A DNA stretch of 64,000 nucleotides from an uncultured Gammaproteobacteria bacterium (lineage in GTDB: Bacteria; Pseudomonadota; Gammaproteobacteria; JACCXJ01), in assembly GCA_963764725.1 (NCBI GenBank), contig CAVXTM010000015.1, positions 64,001 through 128,000 on the forward strand. Direction: 5' to 3'. This document shows positions 23,785 to 58,061 of the stretch, piece by piece. Positions within the stretch are counted from its first letter, which is position 1; each line of letters starts with the position of its first letter. The position numbers and the translations under genes are program-made. The notes under the pieces are model-generated. The model had not been told where the DNA came from. It saw only the letters and a program-made list of their open reading frames with translations, and made no database searches.

Positions 23785-23806
23785 GCGCTGCAATCAAGTT
23801 CTTCCG

Positions 23807-24499
23807 ATGCGATTGCTCTTAGTCGAAGACGAGCGTGCCCTGAGCGATCAGGTGGCGGAGCGGCTGCGCGTCGAGGGCTACGCCGTCGATATCGCGCGCG
23901 ATGGTCAAGAAGCGTTGTATATGGGCGGCGAGTTTCCCATCGATGCCGCGCTCGTTGACCTCGGTCTCCCGAAGCTATCCGGTATCGATGTGATCCGGCG
24001 CTGGCGGGCCGCCGGCCGCACGTTTCCCATCTTGATACTCACGGCGCGCGGGCGCTGGCAAGAAAAGGTGGAAGGCCTCGATACGGGGGCCGACGACTAT
24101 CTGGTTAAGCCGTTCCAATTCGAAGAGCTGCTAGCGCGCTTGCAGGCCCTGATCCGCCGCTCCAAGGGATGGGCCACGCCGTTTCTGGAATGCGGACCGG
24201 TTGCACTGAACACGGCGAGTCAATCCGTGCAGGTCGACGGCGCGCCCGTCGAGCTCACGGCCTTCGAATATAAAGTCTTGGAGTACCTGATGTTGCGCGC
24301 GGGTGAGGTGATCTCCAAGTCGGAGCTCAGCGATCACATCTACGAGGAGGAGTCGGACCGCGACAGCAACGTGCTCGAGGTGCTGGTGGCGCGGTTGCGG
24401 CGTAAGCTCGACCCCGACCGGGTGCTGCAGCCCATCGAGACCCTCCGCGGCCGCGGTTACAGATTCAACCTTGAACCGAGCGGGCGGACTCTCGCTTAA
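23807..24499 (+). CDS. OmpR-family response regulator (PhoP/BqsR-like)
   Basis: LLVEDE, DLGLP, GADDYLVKPF, winged helix ETLRGRGY. Confidence 0.95.
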   Translation: MRLLLVEDERALSDQVAERLRVEGYAVDIARDGQEALYMGGEFPIDAALVDLGLPKLSGIDVIRRWRAAGRTFPILILTARGRWQEKVEGLDTGADDYLVKPFQFEELLARLQALIRRSKGWATPFLECGPVALNTASQSVQVDGAPVELTAFEYKVLEYLMLRAGEVISKSELSDHIYEEESDRDSNVLEVLVARLRRKLDPDRVLQPIETLRGRGYRFNLEPSGRTLA

Positions 24500-26017: not shown

Positions 26018-26640
26018 TTAAGGAAGGGGGTGCTGCACGAAGAATGGCCACACCCAATCGGCTAGATTGAACCCGAAGGGATTGTTGGTCCCATTGGGAT
26101 ATTGATGGGTGACATCGTCAAGAAAAGCGAAGTACAACTCGTTCCCATCGATGTTGCCGGGTTGCGGAATCTGTGCACGTAGCTCTGTCCAGGTTGCACC
26201 GGTCAAGGTCGTGACCGGAGTAGCTTCAAGGTTGAAGGAGTCGAGATTCACCAGGATCCGGTTCTTGATCTGCGGGATCTTGTCGAGATCCGCGGGATTC
26301 AGTGGTAACTCCGTTATCGTAGGCATTCCCAAAGGGATCAGAAAACTGTTGATCGCCTCAAGCCCATTACCGTCCAGGGTGCCAATAGAAAAATACGCAG
26401 AAAGATTGCGGTGCCCGACCAGCGTTTCATGCACCTCGTCCAAACCTGACGTGTGGCAAGCCACCGCCGCGATGAAATCCGAGGCCTCGATGCCTAGACG
26501 TGCACATATTCCCCCGCCGATCGAGAACCCTGCCACATACACGCGCTTGGGATCGGTCGAAAGCTGTTGGATCACGTCATCACCGATTTGACGGATGAGC
26601 TTCACATCATCGGCAGGCCAAGGAGACGTCGCGGGATAGC
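26018..26640 (-). pseudogene. PHB-depolymerase/LpqC-type esterase, N-terminally truncated
   Basis: ADDVKLIRQI...DPKRVYVAGFSIGG, late His, ends WPFFVQHPLP. The N-terminal FHG region and signal peptide are missing. It abuts a CAGGAGAA leader out of frame. Confidence 0.7.
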
Positions 26641-26774: not shown

Positions 26775-27212
26775 CTAGGACAGGTGCCACGTTACTAATG
26801 TTGATGCCGTTAATATCACGGCACTCCATAACGCTTCTGTAGGAAACCAACGGTTAGTAGCGTCTTTGGAGATCGCCACGAAGAAGGCGTCTTGCGCTCC
26901 TGGCACATCGGAGGCAAATAGGGAAGTAGCGCCATCCGGGGCCTCGCGGATGTCAACCTTTACCTTTTCCGGCGAGGTAGCAAGGGGGCGTATGAGCATC
27001 ACGCTCAGTTTTTCGGGACCCGCTCCCAGGTCGGTCACATTGGCCTTAACCGTGACGGTTAACGCTGGGCATGCGAGCCGGTAAATATCCTCGGAGTTCA
27101 CGGCACCTCCCAGCGCACCGTTGACAGTGAATGCTTGTGCTAAGGACGCGCCGCCCATGCCGCCAAGTAGGACTGCTGCTGCACCCATGGTTCTAAGCGT
27201 ATTCGCTTTCAT
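26775..27212 (-). CDS. Secreted hypothetical protein
   Basis: AAGGAG RBS and signal peptide MKANTLRTMGAAAVLLGGMGGASLAQA. C-terminus may be frameshifted. Confidence 0.75.
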   Translation of the reverse strand: MKANTLRTMGAAAVLLGGMGGASLAQAFTVNGALGGAVNSEDIYRLACPALTVTVKANVTDLGAGPEKLSVMLIRPLATSPEKVKVDIREAPDGATSLFASDVPGAQDAFFVAISKDATNRWFPTEALWSAVILTASTLVTWHLS

Positions 27213-27496: not shown

Positions 27497-28433
27497 CTAT
27501 TCGGTGTCCACCCGGTGTAGCTCTTGGTTCAACCGGTTTGCGGCTACGGAACGAATGGTCTCGTCTACATCAGAAAGCGCCTCTTGAAGCAGGGCGATCC
27601 CCTGATCCTTTGATTTCGCATTCTCGACGGCCATGATCCGAACCTCGGCGGATGGGTCCCGCAGGGCCCGCCATAAATGCCCCATCACCTCGGGCCCTCC
27701 GCGCATGGCCAGAGCCTGCACGCCATAAGCCCGCACGCTGGCGTCGTCGTCTGTCAGCGCCGTATCTAGGACCGCAGCGACAGCGCCGTCCTCTTCGGCT
27801 GTTCCGCTATCCGTGAGGGCCGCGATGGCTTGGCGACGCATCTGCGGATCTTCGTCGCGACTCATCGCCAGGAAATGGTCGGTCAACGCTTTATCCATTG
27901 GAGGTTCCGCGGCGGTTGCAGGCTTACCGGCTTTCCACGTTTCCCTGGTTGCTGTCAACGCCGACGGTGTTTGCGGGCGCGCTCTGTTGTCCCCTGGCAC
28001 CTCCACCTTGCACGTTGCCAAGTACCCACACTTCCTTCGGGAGAGAGGAAGACGAATATGCTGTGCCGCCGTAACGAAACATGAAGTCGGCCTCGGGACC
28101 GAATAAGCGCTCTATGGCTTGCCTTACTGGAAGGTTCGCGAAGGACACGGTCACCAATCCCGCGAACGGCCAGGAGTGGTGAAACCGGATCCCGGTCTGT
28201 TCTGTAATCTCGGTCAGCACTTGCATCCATGTTCCCGCCTTTGCCTCAACACTGAGCAGACCGTCTCGAAAGCTAACCCGCACCGTCGTGGCATTAGGAC
28301 GCTCAGACCTGAGCGTTGCGGACAGGCTGTCACGAGAACTCTCCGTCGATGCTTCTGCCGCCAGCCAGGTGGCGAGGATCGCCGGGACTGTAAGGCTAAG
28401 GAGCCCAGCTTTACCTAGTGTCATTCTCTTCAT
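27497..28433 (-). CDS. Secreted protein with STN/secretin-N-like domain and HEAT repeats (split by a frameshift near 27950-28020)
   Basis: ORF from MKRMTLGKAG with GLLSVEA...VLTEITEQTGIRF...VTVSFANLPVRQAIERL, continuing in an overlapping frame with ALxDxxxxVR HEAT repeats. Confidence 0.7.
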
Positions 28434-28488
28434 GCTTAATGCCCATCGCATTGCGTTGATAACAAGTCGCTCTCGTCGCACGTCGTTT

Positions 28489-28698
28489 TTATAAGAAGTA
28501 CCTGGCGACCAGCTCGCGACCCGCCCGGGTGATAAACCCGTCGTCGCTGATGAGACCAAGCTCCTGGCAGACGAGGAAGGGCATCCCGGGCATACCCTTG
28601 GGCAAATACACGGTCCCATCGCCGTAGCGGCAGGCGAGAACCCGGACCAGCTCCCTCTCGCTTGGGCTTGACATCTGATGAATCGGATAAGTGTTCAT
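28489..28698 (-). CDS. Small 69-aa hypothetical protein, copy 1 (possibly winged-helix-like)
   Basis: GGAGGAGG RBS. 64/69 aa identical to the copy at 35172-35381 with frame conserved. Confidence 0.75.
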   Translation of the reverse strand: MNTYPIHQMSSPSERELVRVLACRYGDGTVYLPKGMPGMPFLVCQELGLISDDGFITRAGRELVARYFL

Positions 28699-28846
28699 GG
28701 GACTACCTCCTCCAAGTGACGGTCGCGATCGTGCGTCGATTAGCGTGTCTCATGTACCTCCTTTTCCTATGCTTGATAAGGCGGTGCCGCATCCTCAACA
28801 ACTACCTCTCGTCGCATGCCAGGGAATTCGATTCCCCTTGAATGTA

Positions 28847-28874
28847 TATTTCTCGCGCAGCCGGAAAAGGTTCA
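28847..28874 (-). promoter_or_regulatory. ECF-type promoter TGAACC-N16-GAAATA
   Basis: TGAACC TTTTCCGGCTGCGCGA GAAATA. Same boxes and spacing as the motif upstream of the ECF sigma gene. Confidence 0.8.
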
Positions 28875-29222
28875 TTTCTGAGAGCCACCGTGTGGGCGGA
28901 CCAGCGGTTACAGCTCTAGGAGGAGATAGCAGCGATGAACTCTCACGGATGCGTTTGCACATCCCGTATGCTTGGTAGGTTGAACAGTACCAAAGGAGCC
29001 AAGCTCACTTTATTTTGCTGCGCCCTCGGCCTGCCGCGGGGGCTTGGCCTCGCATCGCTGCCCAGTCATTCGCTCTATCGCCGTGTAATTAATCGATCCT
29101 GGCCCATTTTCAGTTCCTGGGCGTGCTGGTCGGCTGTCGATCACGTGGTTTGGTGCGCCGCGGACCGCGCTTGGGTGTAGCTATTAGTCCGACCCGGTGG
29201 AGGCCGCGGCCCTACACGTGGC

Positions 29223-29335
29223 TCACTGACCCGCTGTCACCGGAATGGCGGCGCCGTTCACGAACGACGCCGCTTCCCACCAGCAGCGACACGTACGCCG
29301 CCACCTCGTCAGCGGTGCGGTAGCGGCCCACCGGG
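29223..29335 (-). pseudogene. SDR oxidoreductase C-terminal remnant
   Basis: Translates (with one frameshift) as VPVGRYRTADEVAAYVSLLV..EAASFVNGAAIPVTAGQ*, a typical SDR C-terminus. Confidence 0.6.
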
Positions 29336-29689
29336 ACAGGGCGTGCCCTACTGGGTCATCACCTCGACGTCGATGGCGCTGTCGAACAGCCAGGCCTTGC
29401 TCCAGACGTCGCGGGTCTTGAACCAGAATCCACTGGCTGCCGCGGTCGCTGCCGACCGCTTCGGTCCTGTACGACCACGGCCCGCCACTGTCACCGGGGA
29501 CCGCGTTGAGGTCTTCCATGGCTACGAGGTTCGACACCAGCCCGCCCGAGAAGGTGAGCGAGGTGACGAACGTCGAGTACACCTGGTCGCACGTCCGGGT
29601 GCCCTGCCTCGGCTGTACACGCAGTAGGTGTTGTTCACAGCTGCGGAGGTCTCCACCGAGTTGACCTCCCTGAGGTCGGTCGGGCTGGC
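29325..29689 (-). repeat. 365-bp direct repeat: 3' part of the S1 protease gene
   Basis: Nearly identical to 33711-34075 (about three differences by eye). Confidence 0.95.
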
Positions 29690-29697
29690 TGACCTCC

Positions 29698-31328
29698 TCA
29701 GTACAGGCACCGCGGCCCGGCGCTGAACTGCACGACCGGATCGGTAACGGGGTGGTTCGCCAGCGTCGGGTCACCCACGTCGCCAGTGTCGAGCGTCCGA
29801 TACAGCACGCCGGCGCTCGAGTACCAGTCCCAGATCGCGTCGTTCGAGCGAGATCGCGGCGCCGACTGAGACCCAGCCGAGGGCCGGATCGTCCGTCGAG
29901 TCCGGCGTGGTCTGCGACGTGTACACACCGGTGCTCTCCAGCCCGACGTGCTGGCGGCAGCGCGGCCCGAACACTGCGGTCACGTTGTTGCCGGTGTCGT
30001 CGAAGACCTGCTCGAGCGACTGGCGCATGAGGTCGGTGAAGTCGTCCTTCGTCGTGTATCGCCCCGTCCGTCCCACCATCAGTTGCTCGCCGGTCGGCCA
30101 CGGCGCGATCCACTGGTCGTCGATGACGCTGTCCTCGAGGTCGACGCGCACGAAGGTCTCGGTCTCGATGAACGGCACGCCGCCGTACATGAGGGTCAGC
30201 AGCGTGCCGAAGTACGAGCAGCGATCGAGGCGGCCGATCGGCTCGTAGACGGCGCGGCAGCTCTCGTCGACGAAGGCGTCTACCGCGGCGTTCCAACCGC
30301 TCGACCACGACGCCGTCGCCATCGTGATGCGGTGAGAGTAGTACGGCGTGTCGCCGAGGCCGTTGGCGTTCGTGTCGACCCAGATGTCGTTGCCGATCAG
30401 CACGTCGTCGGTCATGTCCATGTTGGCGTCGATGACGAGTCGCTTCGTCGGCGCGGCGAGCACGCCGAGGAACCAGTCGGCGTTCTGGATTGCGCCTTTC
30501 GCGCCAGCCGACGTGCCGGTGAAGATCACGTCGGTCGCGGCGTCCAGGTCGGGCACCACGGTGCCGTCGTCCGTCGTCCACGCCGGGTTCGCGTTCTCCT
30601 TGCGCAGCATGCGCCGCGCCGCCGACAGGATGGTGTGCCCGCGGTGGTCGATCGAGAAGTCGTTGCCGGCCCCCGCGGGGTCGGCGTAGTCCACGTCGCT
30701 CCCACGGCCGAGCCACGAGTCGGAGCTGCAGTAGTACATCCACACGTGCGTCCACTCGCGGAAGGCGTTGGCCGGATCGTCGGAGGTCATGCCCGCCGCG
30801 GCGCCGTTCAGCGGCAGGTCGATGACGCCGTCGGCGTTCCAGTCCGTGCTGCATCTTGTTGGCCTGGTACGGCAGGTTGCCCTGCTGCCCGCACCACCGC
30901 TCCAGGCACGCCGTGTGCGAGCTGCAGCTCCCGCCGCCCTGCACGTGCACGATCCATTTGGTCACGTCGGCGCCGCTGCCCGGGCGGACGTAGAACACGC
31001 CGGGCGAGCCGTCGTTGCACACCGCGTTTGGGAAGTCGGCGACGGGCACCGTGACGCGCCGCAGGCAGTCGCTCGTCGCCGGGTTGCAGCCCGCGATCTG
31101 TGACGCCCCCGCCGGCACGCTGGCTCCGGCGCCGCACATCGCGCCCCAGGCCGCGGATCCGGGCGCATCGGCCGCGGTCAGGATGTTGGAGTAGAGCGCT
31201 GCGCGAGCATCGTGGCTCAAGGCGGCGGCGATGAGTGCGAACGCGAGGGCGAGAGAGCGGCGCGGCTGCGACGGCGGTGAGATGCCGGCCCCGGCGCGCG
31301 GCGCGTCGATCGTCCTCTTGTCCAGCAT
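29698..31328 (-). CDS. Secreted pectinacetylesterase/Notum-family hydrolase (frameshifted near 30855 and 29850)
   Basis: AVCNDGSPGVFYVR, WIVHVQGGGSC, NAFREWTHVWMYYCSSDSWLG and GTSAG nucleophile, spread over three ORF frames. GC-richer than the flanking leaders. Confidence 0.85.
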
Positions 31329-31419
31329 GATAATCTCCACTTTCCTTGGGGTGGCGGTGGCCTGTCGCCCGATATAACCCTGTGCCATCCGAGAAGGTTG
31401 GCCACTTGCGCCCAAGGAG

Positions 31420-31541
31420 GACGGTGGGGTGCCAAAACCGGCGGCTGCGTCATACCCCCAATAGATGCCAATCAACGTCTGGTCCACGGTACGGCGCGAG
31501 TTTGAAGGCACGGTTCCCATCAACTCCGGCGTCGCAATCAC
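31420..31541 (-). pseudogene. Internal fragment of a vanadium-dependent haloperoxidase-like gene
   Basis: RTVDQTLIGIYWGYDAAAGFGTPP resembles the VCPO motif QTxxGxFWAYDGxxxxGTPP. Confidence 0.6.
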
Positions 31542-31620
31542 ACTTCTGAAGTTATATGCTTTTCCATGGATATTCTCCTGTAGTCGTTAACTTTGTTAAC
31601 GGTTGCTCTATAAAATAAGA

Positions 31621-31790
31621 ATGCTGAGGAAGTCCTTCGCTGGACTCTTCAGCGTGGCAAGCAAGAGCGGGTCTTGTGCTTTCGCCTTTTGTTTTTCAAT
31701 CGTTGCCGGATTGAAAAAACGCCGGTACCTCCGTGTACCGCTTGCAGGCTGCCGCAAACCAGCGCGGTTTCCGGCAGCCTGTCAATTTCG
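31621..31790 (-). repeat. Repeat A copy 2
   Basis: Homologous to 27260-27427, with a compensatory base-pair change in the large hairpin. Confidence 0.85.
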
Positions 31791-31801
31791 TCAGTCTCCA
31801 T

Positions 31802-32095
31802 CCTAGTGTCATTCTCTTCATGCTTAATGCCCATCGCATAACGTTGATAACAAGTCGCTCTCGTCGCATGCCAGGGAATTCGATTCCCCTTGAATCTATA
31901 TTTCCCACGCCGCCGGAAAAGGTTCATTTCTGAGAAGCCACCGTGTGGGCGGACCAGCGGTTACAACGCTAGGAGGAGATAGCAGCGATGAACATCCCAC
32001 GGATGCGTTGACACTCCCGCATGCTTGGTAGGTTGAGCAGAGTAGATGAAAGGTTTTAGAGGAGCTCTATCCGTACCCCGGGGAGTAATAAACTT
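31802..32095 (-). repeat. Repeat B copy 2
   Basis: Homologous to 35585-35879. Retains only the MKRMTLG codons before joining repeat A. Confidence 0.9.
31899..31926 (-). promoter_or_regulatory. ECF-type promoter TGAACC-N16-GAAATA
   Basis: TGAACC TTTTCCGGCGGCGTGG GAAATA. Confidence 0.8.
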
Positions 32096-32726
32096 GCGCT
32101 TAGGATTGGCACGACGTGAATAAGCTCAAGGTCGTTCCGCTTGGCGACGGTGCGATCTCTATGTTTACGCCCAGCGCGAGCGCTCGTCGGCAATGAATGT
32201 TCTAAGCCAAGATTGAGCGCGTGACAGGCGACGGCGCGAGGGGAGGCCGCGGGGGCGGCCGCGATTAGACGCTAATGTCACGGGATAAGCCATCGCTGAG
32301 CAGGGAGAGCTACCATTGTAAAATTATCCGAGCCTGGCCCGTTTACCCGCGTCGACGCCCCCGAGCTCGCGCAAGCGCCCTGGGGACGGAGGGGCCAGTC
32401 ACGCTGAGAATCATCGCGAAGGACAAATACAAGCGTTCCGTTGCCGAGGCCTAACCGTGCGGATGCCCGTTGACCGCTCGCGCCACGCGGTCCTGCATGA
32501 TCCGTCGCTGGCCCGGCAGGCCGCGCGCCGCGCAATCTCGGTCCGACGGTCAACTCGCCCTACGCCGACTTCACGCCGTACATCTCCCGGGGCGGCCGCT
32601 ACCTGTCCTTCACGTCGGAGCGCCCGGGCATCGTGCCGGCGGTGATCGAAGGCCGCCCACCCGATGCCATCTATCAGGTCGATCTCGCGGACGCGCGCTT
32701 GGCGAATGACCAGAGCCGCGTCGCGA

Positions 32727-33671
32727 TCACTGCACGTCGAAGAACGCGAGCAGCTTGGCGGAAGCATCGAAGCCGTTGGCCGCAATCGGCCAAAGATGGC
32801 CAAGTCCGAACACCTCGGTGAACTGGATCTTCGGGTTCGCGATCCCGGCCTGGCAGTCGGTGGAGAAGAGCGCGTGAGTCGCCTGCGGCAGCGGCGGCTG
32901 CGGCAGCAACGACCCGACGATAAACTCGGTGCAGCCGTCGTTGGAGTACCAGCGACTGAACGAATCCCCCGCCGACAGCCGAAAGCCCCCGGCGGCCACC
33001 GGATCGCCGCCGGCGATCGGCACCGTCCCGTCGGCGTCACCGTGCACGATGAACACCGGCAACAACGTTCCCGCGGGCGGCGGGGGCGGCTCGGCGATTG
33101 TCGAGCCGTAGAACCCGGAAACCACCCCGATCGCGAGGAAGGTTGCCGGCGTGTCCGCGCCGAGCGCGTGGACGAAGTGGCCGCCCATCGAGAATCCGGC
33201 GGCGAGCACCCGCGCGGGATCCGCGTTGAGGTCCGGGCTCGTCGCGAGGTGGTCGATCAGCTCCTCGGCATAGAGCAGATCGTCTCTCACCGCGCCTGTG
33301 GTGTCCCAGGTGCCGCGCGTCACCACGCCCATGCCGAGCGTGCCCTGCGCGAAGACGACGATCTTGCCCTGCTGATTGGCGAGCGTGGCCATGCGGAGCA
33401 TGCCCGGCCGGTTCGAGAACGAGCTCGCCGACTGGCCGGCGCCGTGGAACATGACGACGAGCGGATACGGCACGGCGCGCGCGGGGTCGTAGCCCGCGGG
33501 CAACCGCAGGATGTACGCGCGCTGATCGCCGTTCACGACGTCGAATCGGAGCGCGTACGTCCCGGCCGCCTGCGGGATGGGATCGGTGACTGCATGCGCT
33601 AGAGACGCGCCGCCCATGCTGACAAGTAGGACTACTGCTGCACCAACATTTCTAAACAAATTCGCTTTCAT
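32727..33671 (-). CDS. Secreted PHB-depolymerase/LpqC-type esterase
   Basis: PLVVMFHG, DPARVLAAGFSMGG, HGDADGTVP, GLGHLWP. RBS and signal peptide are shared with the gene starting at 27212. Confidence 0.88.
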   Translation of the reverse strand: MKANLFRNVGAAVVLLVSMGGASLAHAVTDPIPQAAGTYALRFDVVNGDQRAYILRLPAGYDPARAVPYPLVVMFHGAGQSASSFSNRPGMLRMATLANQQGKIVVFAQGTLGMGVVTRGTWDTTGAVRDDLLYAEELIDHLATSPDLNADPARVLAAGFSMGGHFVHALGADTPATFLAIGVVSGFYGSTIAEPPPPPAGTLLPVFIVHGDADGTVPIAGGDPVAAGGFRLSAGDSFSRWYSNDGCTEFIVGSLLPQPPLPQATHALFSTDCQAGIANPKIQFTEVFGLGHLWPIAANGFDASAKLLAFFDVQ

Positions 33672-33733
33672 GATAGACTCCTTACCGTTAGCAATCGCTA
33701 ACAATTAACTGGCCCACCGGGACAGGGCGTGCC

Positions 33734-34984
33734 CTACTGGGTCATCACCTCGACGTCGATGGCGCTGTCGAACAGCCAGGCCTTGCTCCAGACGTCGCGG
33801 GTCTTGAACCAGATCCACTGGCTGCCGCGGTCGCTGCCGACCGCTTCGGTACTGTACGACCACGGCCCGCCACTGTCACCGGGGACCGCGTTGAGGTCTT
33901 CCATGGCTACGAGGTTCGACACCAGCCCGCCCGAGAAGGTGAGCGAGGTGACGAACGTCGAGTACACCTGGTCGCACGTCCGGGTGCCCTGCCTCCGGCT
34001 GTACACGCAGTAGGTGTTGTTCACAGCTGCGGAGGTCTCCACCGAGTTGACCTCCCTGAGGTCGGTCGGGCTGGCGTAGTACTCGGCGAGGTCGGCGTGC
34101 TGTACTCCGTTTTGATCAGGTAGAGTCGTGTGCCATTGCACGTCGCCGTTCAGACCCTCGTGCTCGTCCTCGAAAACCATGTCGTAGCTCGGTCCACCTT
34201 GGGGCTGGTGGTAGTGGTCTATTCCGCTGCAGTGGGCCGCGGTGGTCACACCCGTCTCATTGGTGAGCTGGGACTGCACGGTGAAGCCGCTGGTGCACTC
34301 GGAGGAGCTGCCGTGCACATACGCGCCGCCGTAGGTGTGGAACTCCTCGACGACGTCGTGGCCAACGAATGTGACCCGCACGCCGTCGCTCAGCGACGGC
34401 GGCAGTTCGGCTCCGGGCGTCTGTTCGCCGGTGACCGCGACCTCGATCAGACCGCTTGGCAGTACCGCGGAGCCAACCAGCTGATAGCCGGCGTCGCCGA
34501 AGAACCTCACCACGGCGACGGCGCGGTTCGCCAGTTCGGCGGCCGAGTACTTCCGGCCGCCGGTCAGACCGACGTTCAGGCCGGCATCGGTAGCCAGCGA
34601 TCGTGCGGCCGACGGCACGGCACCCTTGAAGCGCAGGTAGCTCCTCCCGCCCGGCGAGGCGGCGAACTCGGCACCGGCGAACTTGGTGGGAAACTGCGCC
34701 TCGATCTGGTCCTGCAGCTCACCGAATGCATGCTGATCGTCCAGGTGCCGTCGGGTGGCGGCGAGACTCCAGCCTTTGTCGTCGGCGATGATGGCGATGT
34801 CGATCGCCTCGGCGGTAGCCTGATCGTGCAACTCGACACTAGGGTCGGGGTCGACGGTGGCGGCCGTCGCCGGCGTGGCAAAGCTCGCGATTGCGATCAG
34901 GAGCGCCAGGGCGCGTGAAGCTGCACCTATTCCAACGAGTAGCGATATCGCCACACCTATACCTTTTAGCGTCTTCGTATTCAT
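33734..34984 (-). CDS. Secreted S1 serine protease (alpha-lytic/streptogrisin-like) with prodomain
   Basis: CTSGF, TAAHC, GDSGG. CAGGAGAA RBS. Confidence 0.9.
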   Translation of the reverse strand: MNTKTLKGIGVAISLLVGIGAASRALALLIAIASFATPATAATVDPDPSVELHDQATAEAIDIAIIADDKGWSLAATRRHLDDQHAFGELQDQIEAQFPTKFAGAEFAASPGGRSYLRFKGAVPSAARSLATDAGLNVGLTGGRKYSAAELANRAVAVVRFFGDAGYQLVGSAVLPSGLIEVAVTGEQTPGAELPPSLSDGVRVTFVGHDVVEEFHTYGGAYVHGSSSECTSGFTVQSQLTNETGVTTAAHCSGIDHYHQPQGGPSYDMVFEDEHEGLNGDVQWHTTLPDQNGVQHADLAEYYASPTDLREVNSVETSAAVNNTYCVYSRRQGTRTCDQVYSTFVTSLTFSGGLVSNLVAMEDLNAVPGDSGGPWSYSTEAVGSDRGSQWIWFKTRDVWSKAWLFDSAIDVEVMTQ

Positions 34985-35171
34985 GATAAGTTTCTCCTGC
35001 CGTTAGTTAACCTAACGGCCATCTGTGTTAACAACAATTGCTGGTGAGTCATAACCCAGGTTTTGGCGGCGACGAGTTGGATCTTTGGGTTTCATGATTC
35101 GCTGTGCAGCCGCAATCTGTCGTTCTCTGCGCTCGTTGTCGTCAGATTGCATTCACGAAGTCGTGTCGTTT

Positions 35172-35381
35172 TTATAAGAAGTACCTGGCGACCAGCTCGC
35201 GACCCGCCCGGGTAATAAACCCGTCGGCGCTGATGAGACCGAGCTCCTGGCAGGCCAGGAAGAGCATCCCGGGCATACCCTTGGGAAAATACACGGTCCC
35301 ATCGCCGTAGCGGCAGGCGAGAACCCGGACCAGCTCCCTCTCGCTTGGGCTTGACATCTGATGATTCGGGTAAGTGTTCAT
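35172..35381 (-). CDS. Small 69-aa hypothetical protein, copy 2
   Basis: Paralogue of 28489-28698 with the same RBS. Confidence 0.75.
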   Translation of the reverse strand: MNTYPNHQMSSPSERELVRVLACRYGDGTVYFPKGMPGMLFLACQELGLISADGFITRAGRELVARYFL

Positions 35382-35506
35382 GGGGCTACCTCCTCCAAGT
35401 GACGTCGCGGTCGCTCGATGAATTCAATGTCCGATTTACCCACCTCTGGAGCCGGCCTGCAGTGCCCGTGTTCAGAAGTTCAGCAGAGGTAGTTCAATTG
35501 GGACAG

Positions 35507-35879
35507 GAACCCCTCCGTCGATGCTTCTGCCGCCGGCCAGATGGCGAGGATCGCCGGGACTGTAAGGCGAAGGAGCCCGGCTTTACCTAGTGTCATTCTC
35601 TTCATCCTTAATGCCCATCGCATAACGTTGATAACAAGTCGCTCTCGTCGCATGCCAGGGAATTCGATTCCCCTTGAATCTATATTTCCCGCGCAGCCGG
35701 AAAAGGTTCATTTCTGAGAGCTACCGTGTGGGCGGACCAGCGGTTACAACGCTAGGAGGAGATAGCAGCGATGAACATCACACGGATGCGTTTGCACATC
35801 CCGTATGCTTGGTAGGTTGAACAGAATAGATGAAAGGTTATAGAGGAGACCCAGCCGTATACCGGGGGGTAATAAACTT
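35507..35879 (-). repeat. Repeat B copy 3 plus signal-peptide remnant of the STN-HEAT gene
   Basis: Homologous to 28336-28480 + 28817-28987. The ATG at 35605 gives MKRMTLGKAGLLRLTVPAILAIWPAAEASTE, then unrelated sequence and a stop. Confidence 0.9.
35683..35710 (-). promoter_or_regulatory. ECF-type promoter TGAACC-N16-GAAATA
   Basis: TGAACC TTTTCCGGCTGCGCGG GAAATA. Confidence 0.8.
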
Positions 35880-36107
35880 TTGCTCCACCTCTCGTCGTAA
35901 GAATCGCAGCAGAAGTGGCTCAGCCGGCGCGTAAGAAGCGTCTGTCGCCAAGCTCGTAGAGAGCACCTCTCGGGACAACGCGGTGCTCTGCATTCTCAGG
36001 GGTCACCCATTCCTTGACCCACCCATTCCAGACGGGCGATCTCCTTCACCAGACATCTGTACACCGCTAGGCTGGCTAGTTTGCCGCGTGACCGAGGGCC
36101 GCAGCGA

Positions 36108-37339
36108 CTAGCAGCTCGGACGCTGCATTAGTTTTGCTAATGCGCTACACGCATCGACCATCCTGATCTCATTCGTTGATGCGGATCCGGCTGCGGTCAA
36201 TAAACCGATTATCTCCGCAGGCCCAGATGGGGTTGTTTTTCCAGTAGCAAGGCGATGACACCACTCACGTGCGCGGTCGCCACGGAGCTACCCGACAAGA
36301 AATCATATCCGTCCTGCGGCGCGGTGGTCAGGATCTCGAAACCGGGAGCGGCGAGAATATCCTTGTTCGCTCGCCACTGAGGAGGAGGCATGCGGCCGTT
36401 AGCGTCGCTTGCGCCCACTGCGATGACGTTTTCCATGGACGCTGGGAATCCCGGACCGGGTGCTTGCGGTTCGGCCACGGCCGCCACCACGACTATTCCG
36501 CGGCCGGTGGCCGTTTCAATGAGGCGCCCCAGCAGTCGGTCGACGGGCCCAGTGAGGCTTAAGTTTACCACCTGGGCGCTGGTAGTTATCGCAAAGTCGA
36601 TGGCCTTGGCCAGGGTCCAACTGCTGCAGACGGCTTGCGTGTCACCTGCAGGATACCAGCACGCTTTCTCTGCGAGGATTTGCGCCTCGGGGGCGATGCC
36701 GAAGATCCCTATGTCGTTATCGGCCCTGGCGGCGATGATTCCGGCGACGGCGGTACCGTGCGGATCCTGCGAAAACGACTGCTCGCCATTTTCAACGAAG
36801 TTCGCCACCTTCATGATCTGCCCGCGCAGATCGGGATGACCCTTGTCTACGCCGGTGTCCACGATAGCGATCCTGACCCCGCGGCCGGTGCTCACACCGT
36901 GCGCGGTATCGGCGCGAATGAGCTCGGCTCCGTGTTGCATGGACGCATAGGGATCTGTGTGAGCCGATCCCAGTCCTGCGAAGACTTGGTTAATCTGTAC
37001 CGACTCTACGCGCGGATCGGCGGCCAGTTCGTCCAGTACGACATCCAGTGGTTTCCCCGAGGGGACCTCAAACACGATGCATTGCACGCGGATGGAAGAA
37101 AGCGGGAATTCTCCGACCAGCGTCAGGCCGTAGTTCGCGCCCAGTTCACGCGTGAACAGCGGCCAATGCGACTCGGCTTCTGCCGCCAGGGTGACGATGA
37201 GCTGCCGTTCCCGCAGTTGTTTGGGTGCGGCTTCGGCAGCGGTCTGTGACATCAATGGGAACCCTGCCCGGTCCGCACAACCGACCATCAACGCAAACCC
37301 CAGCAGCCACAGGCCGTTGCGAGCGCGCCGGCTCTTCAC
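36108..37339 (-). CDS. S8 subtilase lipoprotein (frameshift near 36225)
   Basis: Lipobox MVGC, IVDTG, HGTAVAG, NLSL, SGSSVATAHVSG. C-terminus continues in another frame as ...MVDACSALAKLMQRPSC*. Confidence 0.9.
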
Positions 37340-38031
37340 CGTGTTGCTGTGGCGGCGCGCTCTGCAAACCGCACCTTGGGATGGGCGCGCAGCTCCCCGA
37401 GCACCTGTGCCAGCTGCGATGGCGAGTGCTTTGGCAGAGCCACGACGTATACTCCGAGCGAGTTGGGACCTTGTACGATGCTGGCATGCATGGCGAGCAA
37501 GAGCGAGCGGATCTCTTTTTCTTTTGTGTCCTCGCTGAGGGCGATCTGCACTCGGGGGACATTATTGGGATCCGCTTTTGTTGGGGATGAAAGCGTTTGA
37601 TAGTACTCAGGCTGTTTATAGGGCATAAGCACAACCAGGGCTCCTACGAGCACGACCACGGTAACTGTCTGCATGCCTAGCATCCATCGCATCTCCGCGG
37701 GGCTTTGTCTGATGGATTGGACAAACCGCGTAAACCTATCGCGCCAAGCTATGGCCCGTCTTTGTGCCGGCGAAGAAGCGTTGACCTCTTCCATCAGGCT
37801 ATGGAAGTGGCCGGGCGAAGGAACCCACTCTTGATCGTCCATGGTTTGCACGCTGTGAGCAATGTCTCGACACCACTGCAACTCTTTTTGGCAGCGAAGG
37901 CAGACCGCAAGGTGCGCTTCCACTTCGATGGCTTCCCGTGGATCTAAGCTTCCGTTGACATACCACGGTAAGATCTCGATGATGTGCCGATGGGCGTCAT
38001 TCGCTGAGGTTAATGTGGTTTCGTTGCTCAT
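37336..38031 (-). CDS. Zinc-finger (zf-HC2) transmembrane anti-sigma factor
   Basis: LPWYVNGSL, HLAVCLRC (HxxxCxxC), single transmembrane segment, periplasmic domain. Confidence 0.9.
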   Translation of the reverse strand: MSNETTLTSANDAHRHIIEILPWYVNGSLDPREAIEVEAHLAVCLRCQKELQWCRDIAHSVQTMDDQEWVPSPGHFHSLMEEVNASSPAQRRAIAWRDRFTRFVQSIRQSPAEMRWMLGMQTVTVVVLVGALVVLMPYKQPEYYQTLSSPTKADPNNVPRVQIALSEDTKEKEIRSLLLAMHASIVQGPNSLGVYVVALPKHSPSQLAQVLGELRAHPKVRFAERAATATR

Positions 38032-38035
38032 GCCT

Positions 38036-38677
38036 TCACCTTTGTTCGGTTAAGATTTCAGCCAGCCGCCGGCGCGCGTGAAACATCCGTGTTTTGATGG
38101 TATTAACCGGAGCCCCCACGATCTCCGCGATCTCTAGGTAGGGGAGTCCATGGAAGAAGGTGAGTTCGATTACGGCGCGATGCTCGGCAGACAAAGCCGC
38201 GATCGCTTTGGCGAGCGTTCGGCTCCGTTCATGGCGCTCCAGATCCTGTTCCGGCGTTTCGTGATCCGACGCGTCGTTGGGGACACGTTCTTCGCAACTC
38301 GACTGAAGTTCGCCATCGGGCCCAGAGCTATGTCGCGAGGCTTGCTGGAGGGCTTTGAGGCCCTTCTTATGCGCAATGCCAAAGAGCCAGCTAGATAAAC
38401 GACAACTGGAATCGAAGCGGCCGGCATTGAGCCACAAGGTCAACATGACATCGCTTAGCGCCTCTTCGGTAAGCTCGCGGCTCTTCAGCAGTCTCAAAAG
38501 ATACCGTCCTAGCATCGGCGCGTAACGACGGTAGAGTACCTCAAAGGCTTGGCGGTCCCGCGCGGCCACGCGCATCATCATGGCGCCATCCGTTTCTGCA
38601 CCGGAAAAGTCGCAGTCCGTCACCTTTGGGTACTTACCTAACAGGCCCGAGTGATTCTTACATGCTACTGAAATCAT
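38036..38677 (-). CDS. ECF RNA polymerase sigma factor
   Basis: AFEVLYRRY, SSWLFGIA, region 4 YLEIAEIVGAPVNTIKTRMFHARRRL. Start uncertain. Confidence 0.93.
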   Translation of the reverse strand: MISVACKNHSGLLGKYPKVTDCDFSGAETDGAMMMRVAARDRQAFEVLYRRYAPMLGRYLLRLLKSRELTEEALSDVMLTLWLNAGRFDSSCRLSSWLFGIAHKKGLKALQQASRHSSGPDGELQSSCEERVPNDASDHETPEQDLERHERSRTLAKAIAALSAEHRAVIELTFFHGLPYLEIAEIVGAPVNTIKTRMFHARRRLAEILTEQR

Positions 38678-38753
38678 GAGTTATTCGCCAGCCTCGACAC
38701 TATGCGACCCAGAAACCTCATGCCGCGAGGTTCTGTTTGAGCTTCTCCCCAAG

Positions 38754-38781
38754 TATTTCCCGATTTCGCACCAAAGGTTCA
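38754..38781 (-). promoter_or_regulatory. Putative autoregulatory ECF promoter TGAACC-N16-GAAATA
   Basis: TGAACC TTTGGTGCGAAATCGG GAAATA, ~77 bp upstream of the sigma ORF, outside any repeat B homology. Confidence 0.8.
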
Positions 38782-38896
38782 AACCATCGGGTGTTTTCGC
38801 GAAAGTGTTAAATAGGCACGAGGCGAGAGCGCGCGTTGCGTTGAAGCTTTGCGGTTGACAGAATACCCGCCGAAAACCACTAGGGAAAGCGAAAAA

Positions 38897-40204
38897 ATGG
38901 GAACAGAGCAAAAAAGCCGTAGCGGCATTGCTTCGTTCTTCTGCCTATCGCTGGCCGCTATGGTATCTAGCCCATGCCATGGGGAGAGCTCTCTCATCGA
39001 TGCGCTAAGCACCGGCCAGTTTGACCTCTTTTTGCGCTACCGGTTCGAACACGTAGACGATGGCAAACCCGGCATCGAAGACGCATATGCCAACACGCTA
39101 AGAACTGCGCTCGGTTACAATACCGGGAGTTTTTATGACCTGGGCGTGTACCTGCAGCTAGAAGACGTACGCGCCCTGGGGAGGGAGTCGTTTAATGACG
39201 GGGGCGCAAACGGCGTTACCGATCATGCGCTGGTGGTGGATCCGGAAGGCACGGAGATCAATCAGGCCAATCTTCGCTACGAGGGCCTGCCAAGGACCGT
39301 CTTACGTGTGGGGCGTCAGGAGATCGCCCACCGAGAAGCGCCCCTGCACCGCTTCGTGGGGAACGTGCTTTGGCGGCAAAACTGGCAGTCCTTTGACGCC
39401 TTCCGGATCCTGAACCTCAGCATTCCCTACGCCGCTCTGGACTATGCCTATGTGTGGAACGTCAACACCATCTTTGGAGAGGGTAACCCCTTGCCCGGTC
39501 GCAGCGACTTTCCTATGGACAGCCATTTGTTGCGGGCCGAATATACGGGTCTCGCCTTAGGAAAGCTTGAGGCGTACGCGTACCTGCTCGATTTCGATGA
39601 CAGCGTCTCAGAGCGTTTTTCCACGGCCACCGGCGGCCTGCGTTTGGAAGGAGATCAGGGTTTAACGCCAAACGCTACGCTGACCTATGCCGGCGAATTC
39701 GCCCATCAGTGCGATTACGCTGATAATTCAAACGACATTGATGTCAATTACTATCTTGGCGAGGTGGGCGTCAGCTACAACCTCGGCTGGCAGTTACAAA
39801 CCGTCGCCTTGAATGTTGGCTACGAGGTGTTAGAGGGTGACGGCGGGGTCGACGCGTTTCAAACACCTTTGGGCACTAATCACGCCTTCCAGGGATGGGC
39901 GGATCGCTTCTTGATCACGCCGGGTGATGGTGTCGAAGACCTCTATGTCACGCTGAAGCTAAGCGCCTTTGGGGCGGTTCTGATCGCGGTTTATCACGAT
40001 TTTAACGCCGATAATGAGGGGTACGATTACGGGCACGAATGGGATATCGCGTTAGAGCGGCCGTTCGGCAGGGGTTTCCTGGTCGGCGTCAGTTACGCCC
40101 ACTACGAGGCGGATCGCAATGCTACCAATGTGCTTCGCAACAGCGCCGATGGACAGGCGTTTGATTTATCTAAGACCTGGGCCTATCTGCAGTTCCGATT
40201 TTAG
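38897..40204 (+). CDS. Outer-membrane beta-barrel, alginate export family
   Basis: LRYRFEHVD, DPEGTEINQA, FVGNVLWRQNWQSFDA, TPLGTNHAFQGWAD, C-terminal Phe. Confidence 0.85.
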   Translation: MGTEQKSRSGIASFFCLSLAAMVSSPCHGESSLIDALSTGQFDLFLRYRFEHVDDGKPGIEDAYANTLRTALGYNTGSFYDLGVYLQLEDVRALGRESFNDGGANGVTDHALVVDPEGTEINQANLRYEGLPRTVLRVGRQEIAHREAPLHRFVGNVLWRQNWQSFDAFRILNLSIPYAALDYAYVWNVNTIFGEGNPLPGRSDFPMDSHLLRAEYTGLALGKLEAYAYLLDFDDSVSERFSTATGGLRLEGDQGLTPNATLTYAGEFAHQCDYADNSNDIDVNYYLGEVGVSYNLGWQLQTVALNVGYEVLEGDGGVDAFQTPLGTNHAFQGWADRFLITPGDGVEDLYVTLKLSAFGAVLIAVYHDFNADNEGYDYGHEWDIALERPFGRGFLVGVSYAHYEADRNATNVLRNSADGQAFDLSKTWAYLQFRF

Positions 40205-40252: not shown

Positions 40253-43439
<3,187 letters not shown>

Positions 43440-43516
43440 GGGGAAACGCTTAAATAAGTAACCTATTGATTGTCAGTAGTTTAATGGCCATCTTGGTCAT
43501 GTCTGCGGGTTCCTTC

Positions 43517-45034
43517 TTAAATAAACTCACGCCCAAAATGGCACATACCGGACTTCCGGGATCCACCAATCTTTTCGTCGGGCTTTATCAACCCGGACTC
43601 GATCGTCGCAGCGATCACCTGGGACGCAATCGCCGCCTTACTCTCAGGTAAATGAAAGCGCTCACGAAGTGACTGGTTTGTCATACGTTCCGACATGACC
43701 CACTTCAACGCACAGTGCTGGTAGCAGGCCCGGGCGCGGTCCTCCCGATCCATGTCCTCGAACGGCTTCGGGCCGTAGAGCGTTACGATGGTCCGGCGGT
43801 GTCCGGCGCGGAAGTCCGGGGCAGGCAACTGGAACACTTCAGCCGCTTGCACTACGCGGTCGATACCGCTGCTCTTTTCCTCGCAGATTCCAAATCTGCG
43901 CATCAGATCGGCGAGGCGTTCGTTCCTCGATTGGTACCCGTCGATGAACCGCTCGACCGGGACGACCGGCTCGCCAGGATTCGAGATTTCCACACGATTG
44001 CTGAACACCTCTACCATCACCGACGCACCGCCCACGCTCAAATCTTGGTGGATGAGCGCGTTGGCAACCAGCTCGCGGATCACCACTTCCGGCACGAGCT
44101 TCATTTCCTTGCGGAGTGCGTCCACAATCACCTCGTTTTGCGGTAGCTGGCCCATGATGAAGTGCACCAGCCCTTGAAAGCCGACCGCGTAGCCTTTCAT
44201 TCCTAGCTGGTCGAGCCGGGTCTCCAATTTCGAGGTACCGGTGTAGACCACTACGCGCGGCGCCTTGCGGGCCAGGTCAGAGAAGTCGGCCAGCCTCTTC
44301 GCAAGCAACAAACCTCCCAGGCGTCGGATGGCATACTGGCCGTCGATTTCATCGATCAAGCGCTCGCTCAAGAGCCGGTCGAGGACGCCAGCGCGCTTGG
44401 TCGGGTATGGCAACTTAAGCAGCTCAAACAAGGTTTGCGTATCAAGCAACTCCACTAATTGCTGCGCATCCAAACCAGTCTTCGAGTGCTCCTCCAACCA
44501 GTCCGGCTTACCCTCGGCGAAGATTCTGCGAAGCTGGTCCTCGCTCATCGGCACCAGTGCTTCTCCGGAGCGCATCAGGTACTTGCCTTCGAGGTGATAC
44601 GCTGTCCCGCGTGGACGGGAGGGAATGTGGAACACGAGCACCCGGCCGTTCGGGTGCGCTACTTCCTCGATGTCCACACGGAAACCGACGGCCGCGAAGA
44701 GCTTCTCGGCCATGGCAACGGAATCACGGAAGGCGTGAGTGCCCACCACCGGTCGAGGGGGTTTGTCGGCGACACCCAACACGAGGAACCCTCCGCCCTC
44801 GTTGGCCATGGCGACGCAGTATTCGTAGAGCTTGCGGTTGTCGAACTGAGTCTTCGCTTCCTTGAACTCTAGTCTTGGTTTTTCGGTCGCCGACTGTCGC
44901 CAGAGGTCGAGCTGCTCCGGGGCATGATCACCGTTATGCAGTGCTGCCCCGTCGCCGCCAGCTTGACCGAATCCCGAGGCTTCAGCCGGCAACCGTCGCT
45001 TCGACATGGTTCGCAATGCTAGCAAAGCCTTCAC
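43517..45034 (-). CDS. Schlafen/AlbA_2 + RecG-C/HATPase-like protein embedded in the type I R-M locus
   Basis: LEFKEAK, VAMANEGGGFLVLGV (AlbA_2), IRELVANALIHQD, RVEISNPG, SRNERLA, EEKSSGIDR. Confidence 0.85.
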   Translation of the reverse strand: MKALLALRTMSKRRLPAEASGFGQAGGDGAALHNGDHAPEQLDLWRQSATEKPRLEFKEAKTQFDNRKLYEYCVAMANEGGGFLVLGVADKPPRPVVGTHAFRDSVAMAEKLFAAVGFRVDIEEVAHPNGRVLVFHIPSRPRGTAYHLEGKYLMRSGEALVPMSEDQLRRIFAEGKPDWLEEHSKTGLDAQQLVELLDTQTLFELLKLPYPTKRAGVLDRLLSERLIDEIDGQYAIRRLGGLLLAKRLADFSDLARKAPRVVVYTGTSKLETRLDQLGMKGYAVGFQGLVHFIMGQLPQNEVIVDALRKEMKLVPEVVIRELVANALIHQDLSVGGASVMVEVFSNRVEISNPGEPVVPVERFIDGYQSRNERLADLMRRFGICEEKSSGIDRVVQAAEVFQLPAPDFRAGHRRTIVTLYGPKPFEDMDREDRARACYQHCALKWVMSERMTNQSLRERFHLPESKAAIASQVIAATIESGLIKPDEKIGGSRKSGMCHFGREFI

Positions 45035-45049
45035 GACGTCGAACGCTCC

Positions 45050-46527
<1,478 letters not shown>

Positions 46528-46538
<11 letters not shown>

Positions 46539-49582: not shown

Positions 49583-49592
49583 TCCAGATTCC

Positions 49593-56364: not shown

Positions 56365-57908
<1,544 letters not shown>

Positions 57909-57984: not shown

Positions 57985-58061
<77 letters not shown>

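Follow-up and report, generated by a model that had tools for sequence, protein, structure and literature searches.

A predicted promoter shared by an ECF sigma factor operon and a repeat before secreted-protein genes in an uncultured gammaproteobacterium

Introduction

According to the main text of the ECF Hub classification (Casas-Pastor et al. 2021, PMC7826278), extracytoplasmic function (ECF) sigma factors usually autoregulate and are encoded together with their regulators and targets, which allows their promoters to be predicted. The logic of such predictions, which uses autoregulation, a conserved neighbourhood and a group-specific motif, is the same as the one that we apply here. We analysed a stretch of 64,000 nucleotides (nt) from an uncultured Gammaproteobacteria bacterium (positions 64,001 to 128,000 of contig CAVXTM010000015.1, assembly GCA_963764725.1), referred to as the window in the following. 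The window encodes an ECF-type sigma factor of 213 amino acids (aa; 38036–38677, minus strand), followed by a membrane anti-sigma factor and an S8 subtilase. An earlier note on this DNA had described the motif TGAACC-N16-GAAATA upstream of the sigma gene and in three copies of a repeat, called repeat B, and had proposed that the local sigma factor drives the whole array of genes around these copies. We find it likely that the motif is the cognate promoter of the sigma factor, used for autoregulation and present in three repeat-borne copies before genes of secreted hydrolases.

The described systems to which the locus compares best are RpoE-ChrR of Rhodobacter sphaeroides, SigK-RskA and SigW-RsiW. 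As in these systems, the sigma factor has two domains: it matches the Pfam families Sigma70_r2, Sigma70_r4_2 and Sigma70_ECF, with Sigma70_r2 at residues 48–115 and Sigma70_r4_2 at residues 154–205, and Pfam detects no other sigma domain along the 213 aa. With sigma2 and sigma4 only, and with neither region 1.1 nor region 3, the protein has the domain content of ECF (group 4) sigma factors, and it matches the NCBIfam model of the sigma70-ECF superfamily with 89.2 bits (cut-off 42.9). A second likeness is the apparently co-transcribed membrane anti-sigma factor with an H-x3-C-x2-C motif (231 aa, 37336–38031, minus strand; Pfam zf-HC2 and Fervidolysin_NPro-like). Its gene starts 5 nt past the stop codon of the sigma gene, which is the place of a cognate anti-sigma factor, and the protein has a zinc anti-sigma domain at its N-terminus, a single predicted membrane segment and, at its C-terminus, a domain resembling a subtilase prodomain. 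The residues H14, H40, C44 and C47 are invariant in 28 sequences and form the H-x3-C-x2-C motif with an upstream His that characterises class I. Third, a GAAC-type -35 element and a short G-rich -10 element are found at ECF-typical spacing before the operon.

The locus also differs from these systems. The closest solved relatives of the sigma factor are RpoE of R. sphaeroides (2q1z) and SigK (4nqw), and the best match of the anti-sigma factor in the PDB is ChrR (2q1z_B, profile search); all the best PDB sequence matches are distant (2q1z with E 4e-17 for the sigma factor and 2.6e-8 for the anti-sigma factor, 4nqw and 5wuq). The sigma factor has low sequence similarity to all solved ECF sigma factors and matches none of the NCBIfam subfamily models above their cut-offs. 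SigW and RpoE recognise a -10 element with a CGT-type core, whereas the predicted -10 element of the family reads GG-N-A-N3-AC. Furthermore, and unlike in the RpoE-ChrR, SigK and SigW systems, the extracytoplasmic domain of the anti-sigma factor resembles a subtilase prodomain, and most relatives have an S8 gene that is translationally coupled to the anti-sigma gene.

This S8 gene encodes a subtilase that is probably a lipoprotein (36108–37339, minus strand; Pfam Peptidase_S8, E 4e-37), and its start overlaps the anti-sigma stop codon by 4 nt. The catalytic Asp, His and Ser and the oxyanion Asn of a subtilase are present and invariant in 28 sequences (D156, H189, S347 and N254 in the numbering of L001, the closest related locus). 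A secreted or periplasmic protease that is encoded with a single-pass anti-sigma factor, or acts on its extracytoplasmic part, is also found in site-1 proteolysis of the DegS-RseA, PrsW-RsiW and Prc-FecR type. Such proteolysis of the anti-sigma factor is the most likely way in which the regulon would be switched on. Unlike in those systems, the protease here is a subtilase, and the anti-sigma domain that it would cleave is like the prodomain of the protease itself.

In the literature on ECF sigma factors with a subtilase, S8, prodomain or TGAACC, we found no paper that describes the sigma/anti-sigma/S8 module or its prodomain-like anti-sigma domain. The main text of PMC7826278, which leaves the group descriptions to its supplements, mentions neither subtilases nor peptidase nor TGAACC, and the sigma family may already have an ECF group number and a predicted motif. 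ECF54, according to a passage of PMC8999054, has subtilases in its context and no anti-sigma factor; we rejected it as the group of this sigma factor because an anti-sigma factor is present here.

Results

The exact pattern TGAACC-N16-GAAATA occurs four times on the two strands of the window, always on the minus strand: at 38754–38781 upstream of the sigma gene, and at 35683–35710, 31899–31926 and 28847–28874 in the three copies of repeat B. Among 100 dinucleotide-preserving shuffles, the mean number of matches was 0.00 and no shuffle reached four. The four sites with identical boxes and a 16-nt gap are thus confirmed. The site at the sigma gene is intergenic, lying between this gene and a divergent open reading frame (ORF) of 451 aa, and ends 77 nt before the ATG at 38677. 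The G+C content of the region is about 55–68%. A caller of sigma-70-type promoters called none at the four sites, and we thus rejected this promoter type as their identity.

To what extent the four sites count as separate observations depends on their surroundings. The repeat copies are 91–95% identical to each other, and the agreement of boxes and spacers among them is thus expected with or without selection and carries no weight; their 16-nt spacers differ at 1–3 positions only. Between the sigma site and the repeat, 7 of the 16 spacer positions are identical, six of them next to the boxes, namely TTT after TGAACC and, in the sigma site and the copy at 35683–35710, CGG before GAAATA. The signal common to the sigma site and the repeat is TGAACCTTT-N10-CGGGAAATA. 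The earlier statement that the spacer varies while the boxes do not is thus informative only for the sigma site compared to the repeat, and not for the repeat copies compared to each other. A blastn search of the sigma upstream region against the repeats gave no match, and the local alignment scores of the flanks of the sigma site and the repeat (150 nt upstream and 100 nt downstream) were reached by 122–424 of 500 shuffles. We therefore rejected homology of these flanks as not above chance and did not trust the scattered matching columns of a MAFFT alignment. The copy at the sigma gene hence lies outside the homology of repeat B, as had been claimed, and since the three repeat copies are recent paralogues, the window holds two independent occurrences of the motif, not four.

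Relatives of the sigma protein are 85–99% identical in uncultured Gammaproteobacteria, and a large family follows at about 50% identity. We used an alignment of 19 sigma relatives to scan one genome per species, which resulted in 80 loci with a total of 1,332,667 nt. Assigned to taxonomic groups by hand, these comprise 29 loci of Burkholderiales/Betaproteobacteria, 28 of Acidobacteriota, 7 of other Pseudomonadota, 6 of Myxococcota/delta, 5 of Methylococcales, 2 each of Competibacteraceae and Spirochaetales, and L001 from a metagenome-assembled genome of Chromatiales, whose sigma factor is 92% identical. According to tblastn, an anti-sigma homologue is found in 78 and an S8 homologue in 75 of the 80 loci, directly after the sigma gene. 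The order of the three genes is thus kept in nearly all loci, which makes the operon an old, conserved unit. The 4-nt overlap of anti-sigma stop and S8 start that is seen in the window recurs in 29 of the 70 loci listed.

The motif is conserved in front of these sigma genes. A sense-strand TGAACC lies at most 300 nt 5' of the sigma homologue in 50 of the 80 loci, compared to 5.2% of 8182 control windows of 300 nt from the same loci. The absence of the motif upstream of orthologous ECF genes, which the earlier note had named as an outcome that would speak against its proposal, is thus not what we observed. Near sigma genes, on either strand and leaving out L001, 70 of 89 TGAACC boxes are followed by GG.A...AC with at least four of the five positions matching, compared to 47 of 427 boxes elsewhere in the loci. 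Of these 70 sites, 65 have a spacing of 15 nt and 5 have one of 14 nt. The family thus has a group-specific two-block promoter motif conserved upstream of its sigma gene, as is expected of an ECF group.

The exact pattern of the window is confined to few of these loci. It is present upstream of the sigma gene in 4 of the 80 loci, all of them Gammaproteobacteria (L001, L002, L022 and L026); besides L001, these are two Methylovulum and a Competibacter. The family-conserved -10 core is GG-N-A, which is GGGA in the window and overlaps the 5' end of GAAATA, with AAATA as a lineage-specific tail. Other lineages have other flavours of the -10 element, namely GGTATTCAC in Duganella and relatives and GGGACATAC in Acidobacteriota. 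Of the two promoter boxes proposed earlier, TGAACC is thus retained, and GAAATA as the -10 element gives way to the core that overlaps it. In these terms, the window sites are a variant with 14-nt spacing, TGAACC-N14-GGGAAATA(C/T). The predicted autoregulatory ECF promoter spans 38753–38781 on the minus strand (TGAACC, 14 nt, GGGAAATAC), about 75 nt 5' of the sigma start codon, and L001 has this motif, including an identical spacer, at the corresponding position. In repeat copy 3 (28847–28874), the -10 element reads GAGAAATA: another base stands in place of the second G, a nearly invariant position of the family, and thus this copy may be a weaker promoter.

We built a two-block weight matrix from 70 family sites, from which the window and L001 were excluded. 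Among all positions on both strands of the window, the matrix ranks the four sites first to fourth, with scores of 26.4 for the sigma site, 20.9 for copy 1, 20.1 for copy 3, where the score is reached in a different spacing register, and 19.3 for copy 2. The best scores in 20 first-order Markov simulations of the window range from 9.1 to 15.9. In the 80 loci, there are 125 hits with a score of at least 16, compared to 6, 1, 6, 0 and 2 in five simulations. Of these hits, 65 lie before the sigma gene (in 65 of the 80 loci), 25 are divergent and 35 lie elsewhere; as the sigma-front and divergent sites trained the matrix, those counts are partly circular, and only the 35 hits elsewhere and the window sites are independent. 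A further comparison concerns the four variable positions of the -10 element. In 48 pairs of a sigma-gene site with another site of its locus, a mean of 2.19 of these positions are identical, compared to 1.22 ± 0.14 for pairs across loci, and none of 2000 permutations reaches 2.19, in a test that is inflated by close relatives among the loci. This covariation within loci suggests that the extra sites of a locus are read by its own sigma factor.

The fifth hit of the matrix in the window has a score of 17.9 (62467–62495, minus strand), which is also above all simulated windows, and its first box reads TGAAGC. It lies inside a gene of a TauE/SafE exporter, and we discounted it as a promoter since at this location it is probably due to chance or non-functional.

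The genes that follow the extra sites differ between lineages. L001 is collinear with the window at 93.2% identity from 39596 to 36096, is divergent beyond and has no repeat B; just past its S8 gene it has two sites of its own, before genes of a DUF5122 beta-propeller protein and a DUF6883 protein. Among the ORFs 3' of extra sites (57 scanned with Pfam), we found cupredoxin/Calx-beta proteins in Acidobacteriota, CPBP/Rce1-like proteins in Duganella and relatives, beta-propeller and cytochrome c proteins in L026 (Methylovulum) and L027 (Burkholderiales), and HlyD and ABC components in Competibacteraceae. Further ORFs encode CHRD, redoxin, a second S8 protein and other ECF sigma factors, and many are without a family. 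A crude test detected a signal-peptide-like or lipoprotein-like start in 30 of 47 downstream ORFs. Homologues of the window cargo genes were not found in the 80 loci, except for one weak match of a 156-aa ORF in L031, and no homologue of the STN-HEAT protein described below is among the 47 predicted target proteins.

Some loci have another predicted promoter of this type, which is directed away from the sigma gene. It lies before cupredoxin/Calx-beta genes in six Acidobacteriota loci (L014, L015, L019, L024, L030 and L034) and before genes of CPBP (Rce1-like) membrane proteases in Oxalobacteraceae, namely Duganella and relatives (L046, L048, L053, L054, L066 and L069).

In the window, the gene divergent from the sigma gene (38849–40204, plus strand) encodes the 451-aa protein, which belongs to no Pfam or NCBIfam family. 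Its homologues adjoin the sigma operon in 9 of the 80 loci, and in L026 and L038 they are upstream and in the same orientation. The protein may be a conserved accessory gene product of the sigma/anti-sigma/S8 module. None of the top 20 matrix hits of the window lies on the plus strand at this gene, and a promoter of the same type for it was thus rejected. Among the 50 ORFs of the window that were scanned, there is no second sigma gene.

Next to the operon, all on the minus strand, the window contains the array in which repeat B is embedded. Copy 1 lies at 35586–35879 with a predicted promoter at 35682–35710, copy 2 at 31802–32095 with a predicted promoter at 31898–31926, and copy 3 at 28797–28987 with a predicted promoter at 28847–28874. 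The identity is 94.8% between 28797–28987 and 35633–35824, 91.2% between 28797–28987 and 31849–32040, and 93.2% between 31802–32095 and 35586–35879. Each copy consists, in this order, of an upstream part of about 110–185 nt, the promoter, a short hairpin, a leader of about 75 nt and the first codons of a secreted protein. Apart from a contig frameshift, this secreted protein is intact only after copy 3, where it is the STN-HEAT protein (27497–28433), which has a signal peptide, a weak STN-like segment and HEAT repeats (Pfam HEAT_2; STN only at E 0.042). All that copies 1 and 2 keep of the STN-HEAT gene is a 57-codon relic of its start, with divergence setting in past the MKRMTLG codons; the relic after copy 1 lies at 35480–35653.

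The copies have been joined to different genes. Copy 1 is followed by a module with a 69-aa ORF (35172–35381), by the gene of a secreted serine protease of 416 aa (33734–34984) and by the gene of a secreted alpha/beta-hydrolase esterase of 325 aa (32727–33704). The protease has no Pfam, NCBIfam or PDB sequence match; we name it S1 (chymotrypsin) type solely for TAAHC and GDSGGP in its translation, which we take to be S1 protease motifs. The esterase resembles depolymerases of polyhydroxyalkanoate and polyhydroxybutyrate (PHB) and matches Pfam Esterase_PHB and Abhydrolase_2, and the NCBIfam model e_dPHAscl_type1 with E 1.2e-26, which is under the cut-off. After copy 2 comes the relic leader ORF, then a segment (31615–31799) homologous to the region 3' of the STN-HEAT gene, with a terminator-like hairpin at 31723–31740. 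Past this segment lie a pectin-acetylesterase-like (PAE-like) gene (approximately 29950–31400) and a 366-nt 3' fragment of the S1 protease gene (29325–29689). The fragment is 99.2% identical to 33711–34075, suggesting a very recent recombination or gene conversion. Beyond the STN-HEAT gene, a secreted protein of 145 aa without a known family is encoded at 26775–27212, its start region being 87% identical to that of the esterase (33586–33709), and 26018–26605 encodes only the C-terminal part of a second PHB-depolymerase-like esterase, whose first residues match positions 86–136 of the 276 profile positions.

A second copy of the 69-aa ORF lies at 28489–28698. The two 250-nt modules that contain the ORF (28482–28731 and 35165–35413) are 95% identical, have their own ribosome-binding site and are placed differently relative to the promoter. 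The 69-aa protein has only a weak winged-helix match (E 0.13). Its cluster has 24 members, several of which occur on two or three contigs, and the module thus looks like a small multi-copy unit. From its sequence, the array appears as the product of recent duplication and recombination. Since no integrase was found and no attC-like element is present in the repeats, which carry promoter, leader and gene start instead, we rejected an integron-type gene cassette array, and the word cassette applies only loosely; integrase, recombinase and transposase domains are absent from the 50 ORFs scanned.

At gathering scores, Rfam matches in the window are limited to the rRNA operon and two tRNAs, with nothing between 26 and 39 kb. 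Structured leader RNAs 3' of the four sites were not detected (z -0.48 to -0.87; 38–60 of 200 shuffles fold at least as well), and the GGGAAT-CGA-ATTCCC hairpin that is present in the leaders is not statistically notable. On the opposite (plus) strand of each repeat copy (28930–28975, 31985–32030 and 35770–35815), a strong GGAGGAG ribosome-binding site is followed after 8 nt by an ATG. The ORF that starts there has 14 codons in copies 1 and 3 and 7 codons in copy 2; this poor conservation argues against coding.

Several genes of the region are interrupted by frameshifts, located near 36215 in the S8 gene, near 30900 in the PAE-like gene and near 27930 in the STN-HEAT gene. The S8 ORF ends at 36209 in the contig through a 1-nt deletion near 36215 compared to L001, and the conserved C-terminus runs on in another frame to 36108. 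The deletion removes the conserved last 37 or so residues in the window copy, and the four other members of the S8 cluster that were read (403, 410, 381 aa) keep them. The PAE-like gene is in two frames, with profile positions 20–71 in one ORF and 94–177 in ORF 29771–30790, and the profile of G+C at third codon positions changes frame near 30900. STN-HEAT is a single protein of 308–311 aa in other assemblies (P0168 and P0169); in this contig, a 1-nt insertion near 27930 divides it into parts of 169 and 133 aa. The 145-aa protein differs at its C-terminal end from relatives of 149 aa. Elsewhere in the window (40253–42999, 46528–47909 and 48301–49711), HsdR is spread over two ORFs, HsdM over three and a class III aminotransferase over two. 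Because these aminotransferase and type I restriction genes are also split, we rejected calling the split genes pseudogenes. Together with the intact homologues in other assemblies, this suggests indel errors in the contig as the simplest reading. The four motif copies all have the same spacing, and thus the motif finding is unaffected by such indels.

The flanks of the region contain a XamI-type restriction-modification pair (3517–6179), a type I restriction-modification system with a Schlafen/AlbA_2 gene (40253–47909) and a complete rRNA operon with 16S, two tRNAs, 23S and 5S (56365–61615).

We furthermore compared the C-terminal domain of the anti-sigma factor, a conserved domain of 85 aa, to subtilase prodomains. 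Its match to Pfam Fervidolysin_NPro-like is barely over the cut-off (21.3 bits, cut-off 21). An hhalign comparison of this domain (37336–37608) with the N-terminal prodomain region of the S8 protein itself (36965–37252; columns 42–119) gave a probability of 79.9% and E 1.4e-5. An AlphaFold2 model of the domain from the 28-row alignment (mean pLDDT 71.6, pTM 0.57) has the order beta-alpha-beta-beta-alpha-beta that is expected for subtilase prodomains. In a Foldseek search of the PDB with this model, the top matches, at E 0.014–0.02, include the propeptides of Tk-subtilisin (4jp8 and 2z58_B; E 0.014–0.015, root mean square deviation 2.5–2.7 Å, 22–23% identity) and of subtilisin E, with the furin prodomain lower down. 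These matches are weak: none has an E of at most 0.001, and ACT, RRM and ribosomal S6 folds score about equal. The periplasmic domain of the anti-sigma factor appears to be homologous to the prodomain of the co-transcribed S8 protease.

We also predicted the complex of the S8 catalytic domain (L001 118–403) and the anti-sigma C-terminal domain (L001 140–229). The scores are 0.56, 0.56 and 0.54, compared to 0.16 for the best of three controls; at least 92% of contacts recur between the runs, with a partner pLDDT of 78 or more. Of 80 solved complexes, 58 reach the mark applied to such predictions, as do 2 of 110 mismatched pairs; scores of at most 0.60 were obtained for only 7 of the 80 solved complexes, and for both mismatched pairs that passed. 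Complexes of subtilisins with propeptides have already been solved, and the pass may thus reflect likeness, not binding. The prediction gives weak support, which we treat as a lead, to an S8 protease that may bind or cut the prodomain-like domain and thereby free the sigma factor.

Discussion

When the evidence is weighed for the separate parts of our explanation, we have high confidence that the site at the sigma gene is an autoregulatory promoter. We are less confident that the repeat copies function as sigma-dependent promoters, and less still that the hydrolase genes are driven from them. We propose the following mechanism. The copy about 75 nt 5' of the sigma gene would mediate positive autoregulation of the sigma/anti-sigma/S8 operon. 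The repeat of 190–295 nt, which comprises a promoter, a leader and the first codons of the secreted STN-HEAT gene, would have been duplicated and recombined before the S1 protease, the two PHB-depolymerase-like esterases and the PAE-like gene. Once set free by the membrane anti-sigma factor, the sigma factor would direct RNA polymerase to start a few bases 3' of GGGAAATA at all four sites. As to the signal input, our best guess is an action of the S8 protease on the periplasmic anti-sigma domain that resembles its own prodomain. We infer sigma-dependence, transcription starts, the reach of the transcripts (including those from copies 1 and 2 to the hydrolases) and the signal.

Several observations weigh against this explanation. 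The three repeat copies are recent duplicates, whose intact boxes give no sign of selection, and the G that is replaced in copy 3 occurs in 68 of 70 family sites. After copies 1 and 2, the relic ORFs come first and the large hydrolase genes start only about 0.6–0.7 kb further, and the hairpin after copy 2 may stop transcripts before they reach the hydrolases. Frameshifts in the contig affect the S8 gene and several cargo genes. Among the related loci, 15 of the 80 have no matrix site with a score of at least 16 before the sigma gene, and part of the support from the others is circular, as stated above. Many loci are furthermore close relatives (29 from Burkholderiales and 28 from Acidobacteriota), which inflates the counts and the permutation test. 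The proposal of the earlier note that the local sigma factor drives the whole cassette array is thus supported as regards the promoter, since the conservation at orthologues and the first four ranks of the matrix argue for the motif as the promoter of the sigma factor. The relic ORFs and the distance of the hydrolases place the whole array beyond the data.

The alternative that survives best, which we still regard as unlikely, is that only the site at the sigma gene works, perhaps together with the copy before the intact STN-HEAT gene, and that the other copies are inert by-products of duplication while the hydrolases use other promoters. It is consistent with the near-identity of the repeat copies, which makes the conservation of their boxes uninformative, with the relics of 57 codons that are all that copies 1 and 2 carry of STN-HEAT, with the hairpin behind copy 2, and with the mosaic nature of the region, which includes the 99% identical 3' fragment of the S1 gene and a truncated esterase. 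Sigma-70-like hexamers are found just 5' of the S1 protease gene (35010–34983) and of the PAE-like region (31599–31572), and seven were detected where 3.3 ± 1.6 are expected; however, these are weak, with 9 of 12 positions matching. Copies 1 and 2, on the other hand, score 20.9 and 19.3, over every simulated window, and their GGGA core is the better one. In related loci, the operon is commonly surrounded by several sites, and an intact promoter would fire at any location.

The second alternative is that a different ECF sigma factor, encoded elsewhere in the genome, reads the repeat copies, and that their likeness to the sigma-gene site is a shared grammar of ECF promoters. TGAACC-type -35 boxes that contain GAAC are common to many ECF groups, and thus another ECF sigma factor of this genome could read the repeat copies, which also counts against our explanation; the window, moreover, covers 64 kb of the genome. 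Yet the match reaches past the -35 box to the TTT after it and to a lineage-specific -10 element (CGGGAAATA), the covariation of the -10 element within loci favours the local sigma factor as the reader of local extra sites, and none of the other scanned ORFs of the window encodes a sigma factor. We thus consider a foreign reader rather improbable. The last alternative, that the motif is no promoter but a chance pattern, a site of another regulator (e.g. of the two-component response regulator at 23609–24499) or the end of a mobile element, accords with repeat B behaving as a shuffled module and with the different placing of the 250-nt sub-module in two cassettes, but is already disfavoured to the point of being hardly credible by the lack of shuffle matches, by a two-block motif with fixed spacing at orthologous sigma genes across phyla, and by the absence of integrase or transposase domains in the scanned ORFs and of Rfam matches in the region.

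Returning to the cognate promoter of the local sigma factor, a broader idea can be put forward, which we hold only tentatively and think less likely than the promoter assignment itself. The operon could be an uncharacterised protease-gated ECF module of Acidobacteriota, Burkholderiales, Methylococcales, Competibacteraceae, Myxococcota and Spirochaetales. Its anti-sigma domain would be a paralogue of the prodomain that docks to the protease as a decoy propeptide, such that activation or occupancy of the protease would free the sigma factor. The portable promoter might then have been copied before different secreted proteins in each lineage, here on a repeat that recruits secreted hydrolases.

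Conclusions

The approach and the kind of result that we present are standard for ECF sigma factors. For the ECF sigma factor of this uncultured gammaproteobacterium, they provide a concrete predicted promoter and a predicted local regulon. Less ordinary are the sensor domain of the anti-sigma factor, which resembles the prodomain of the partner protease, and the set of predicted targets, which changes by lineage while the promoter stays. At the level of the family, the comparison yields the signature TGAACC-N14/15-GG-N-A-N3-AC as a predicted family-wide promoter for the sigma/anti-sigma/subtilase module of many soil and water bacteria.

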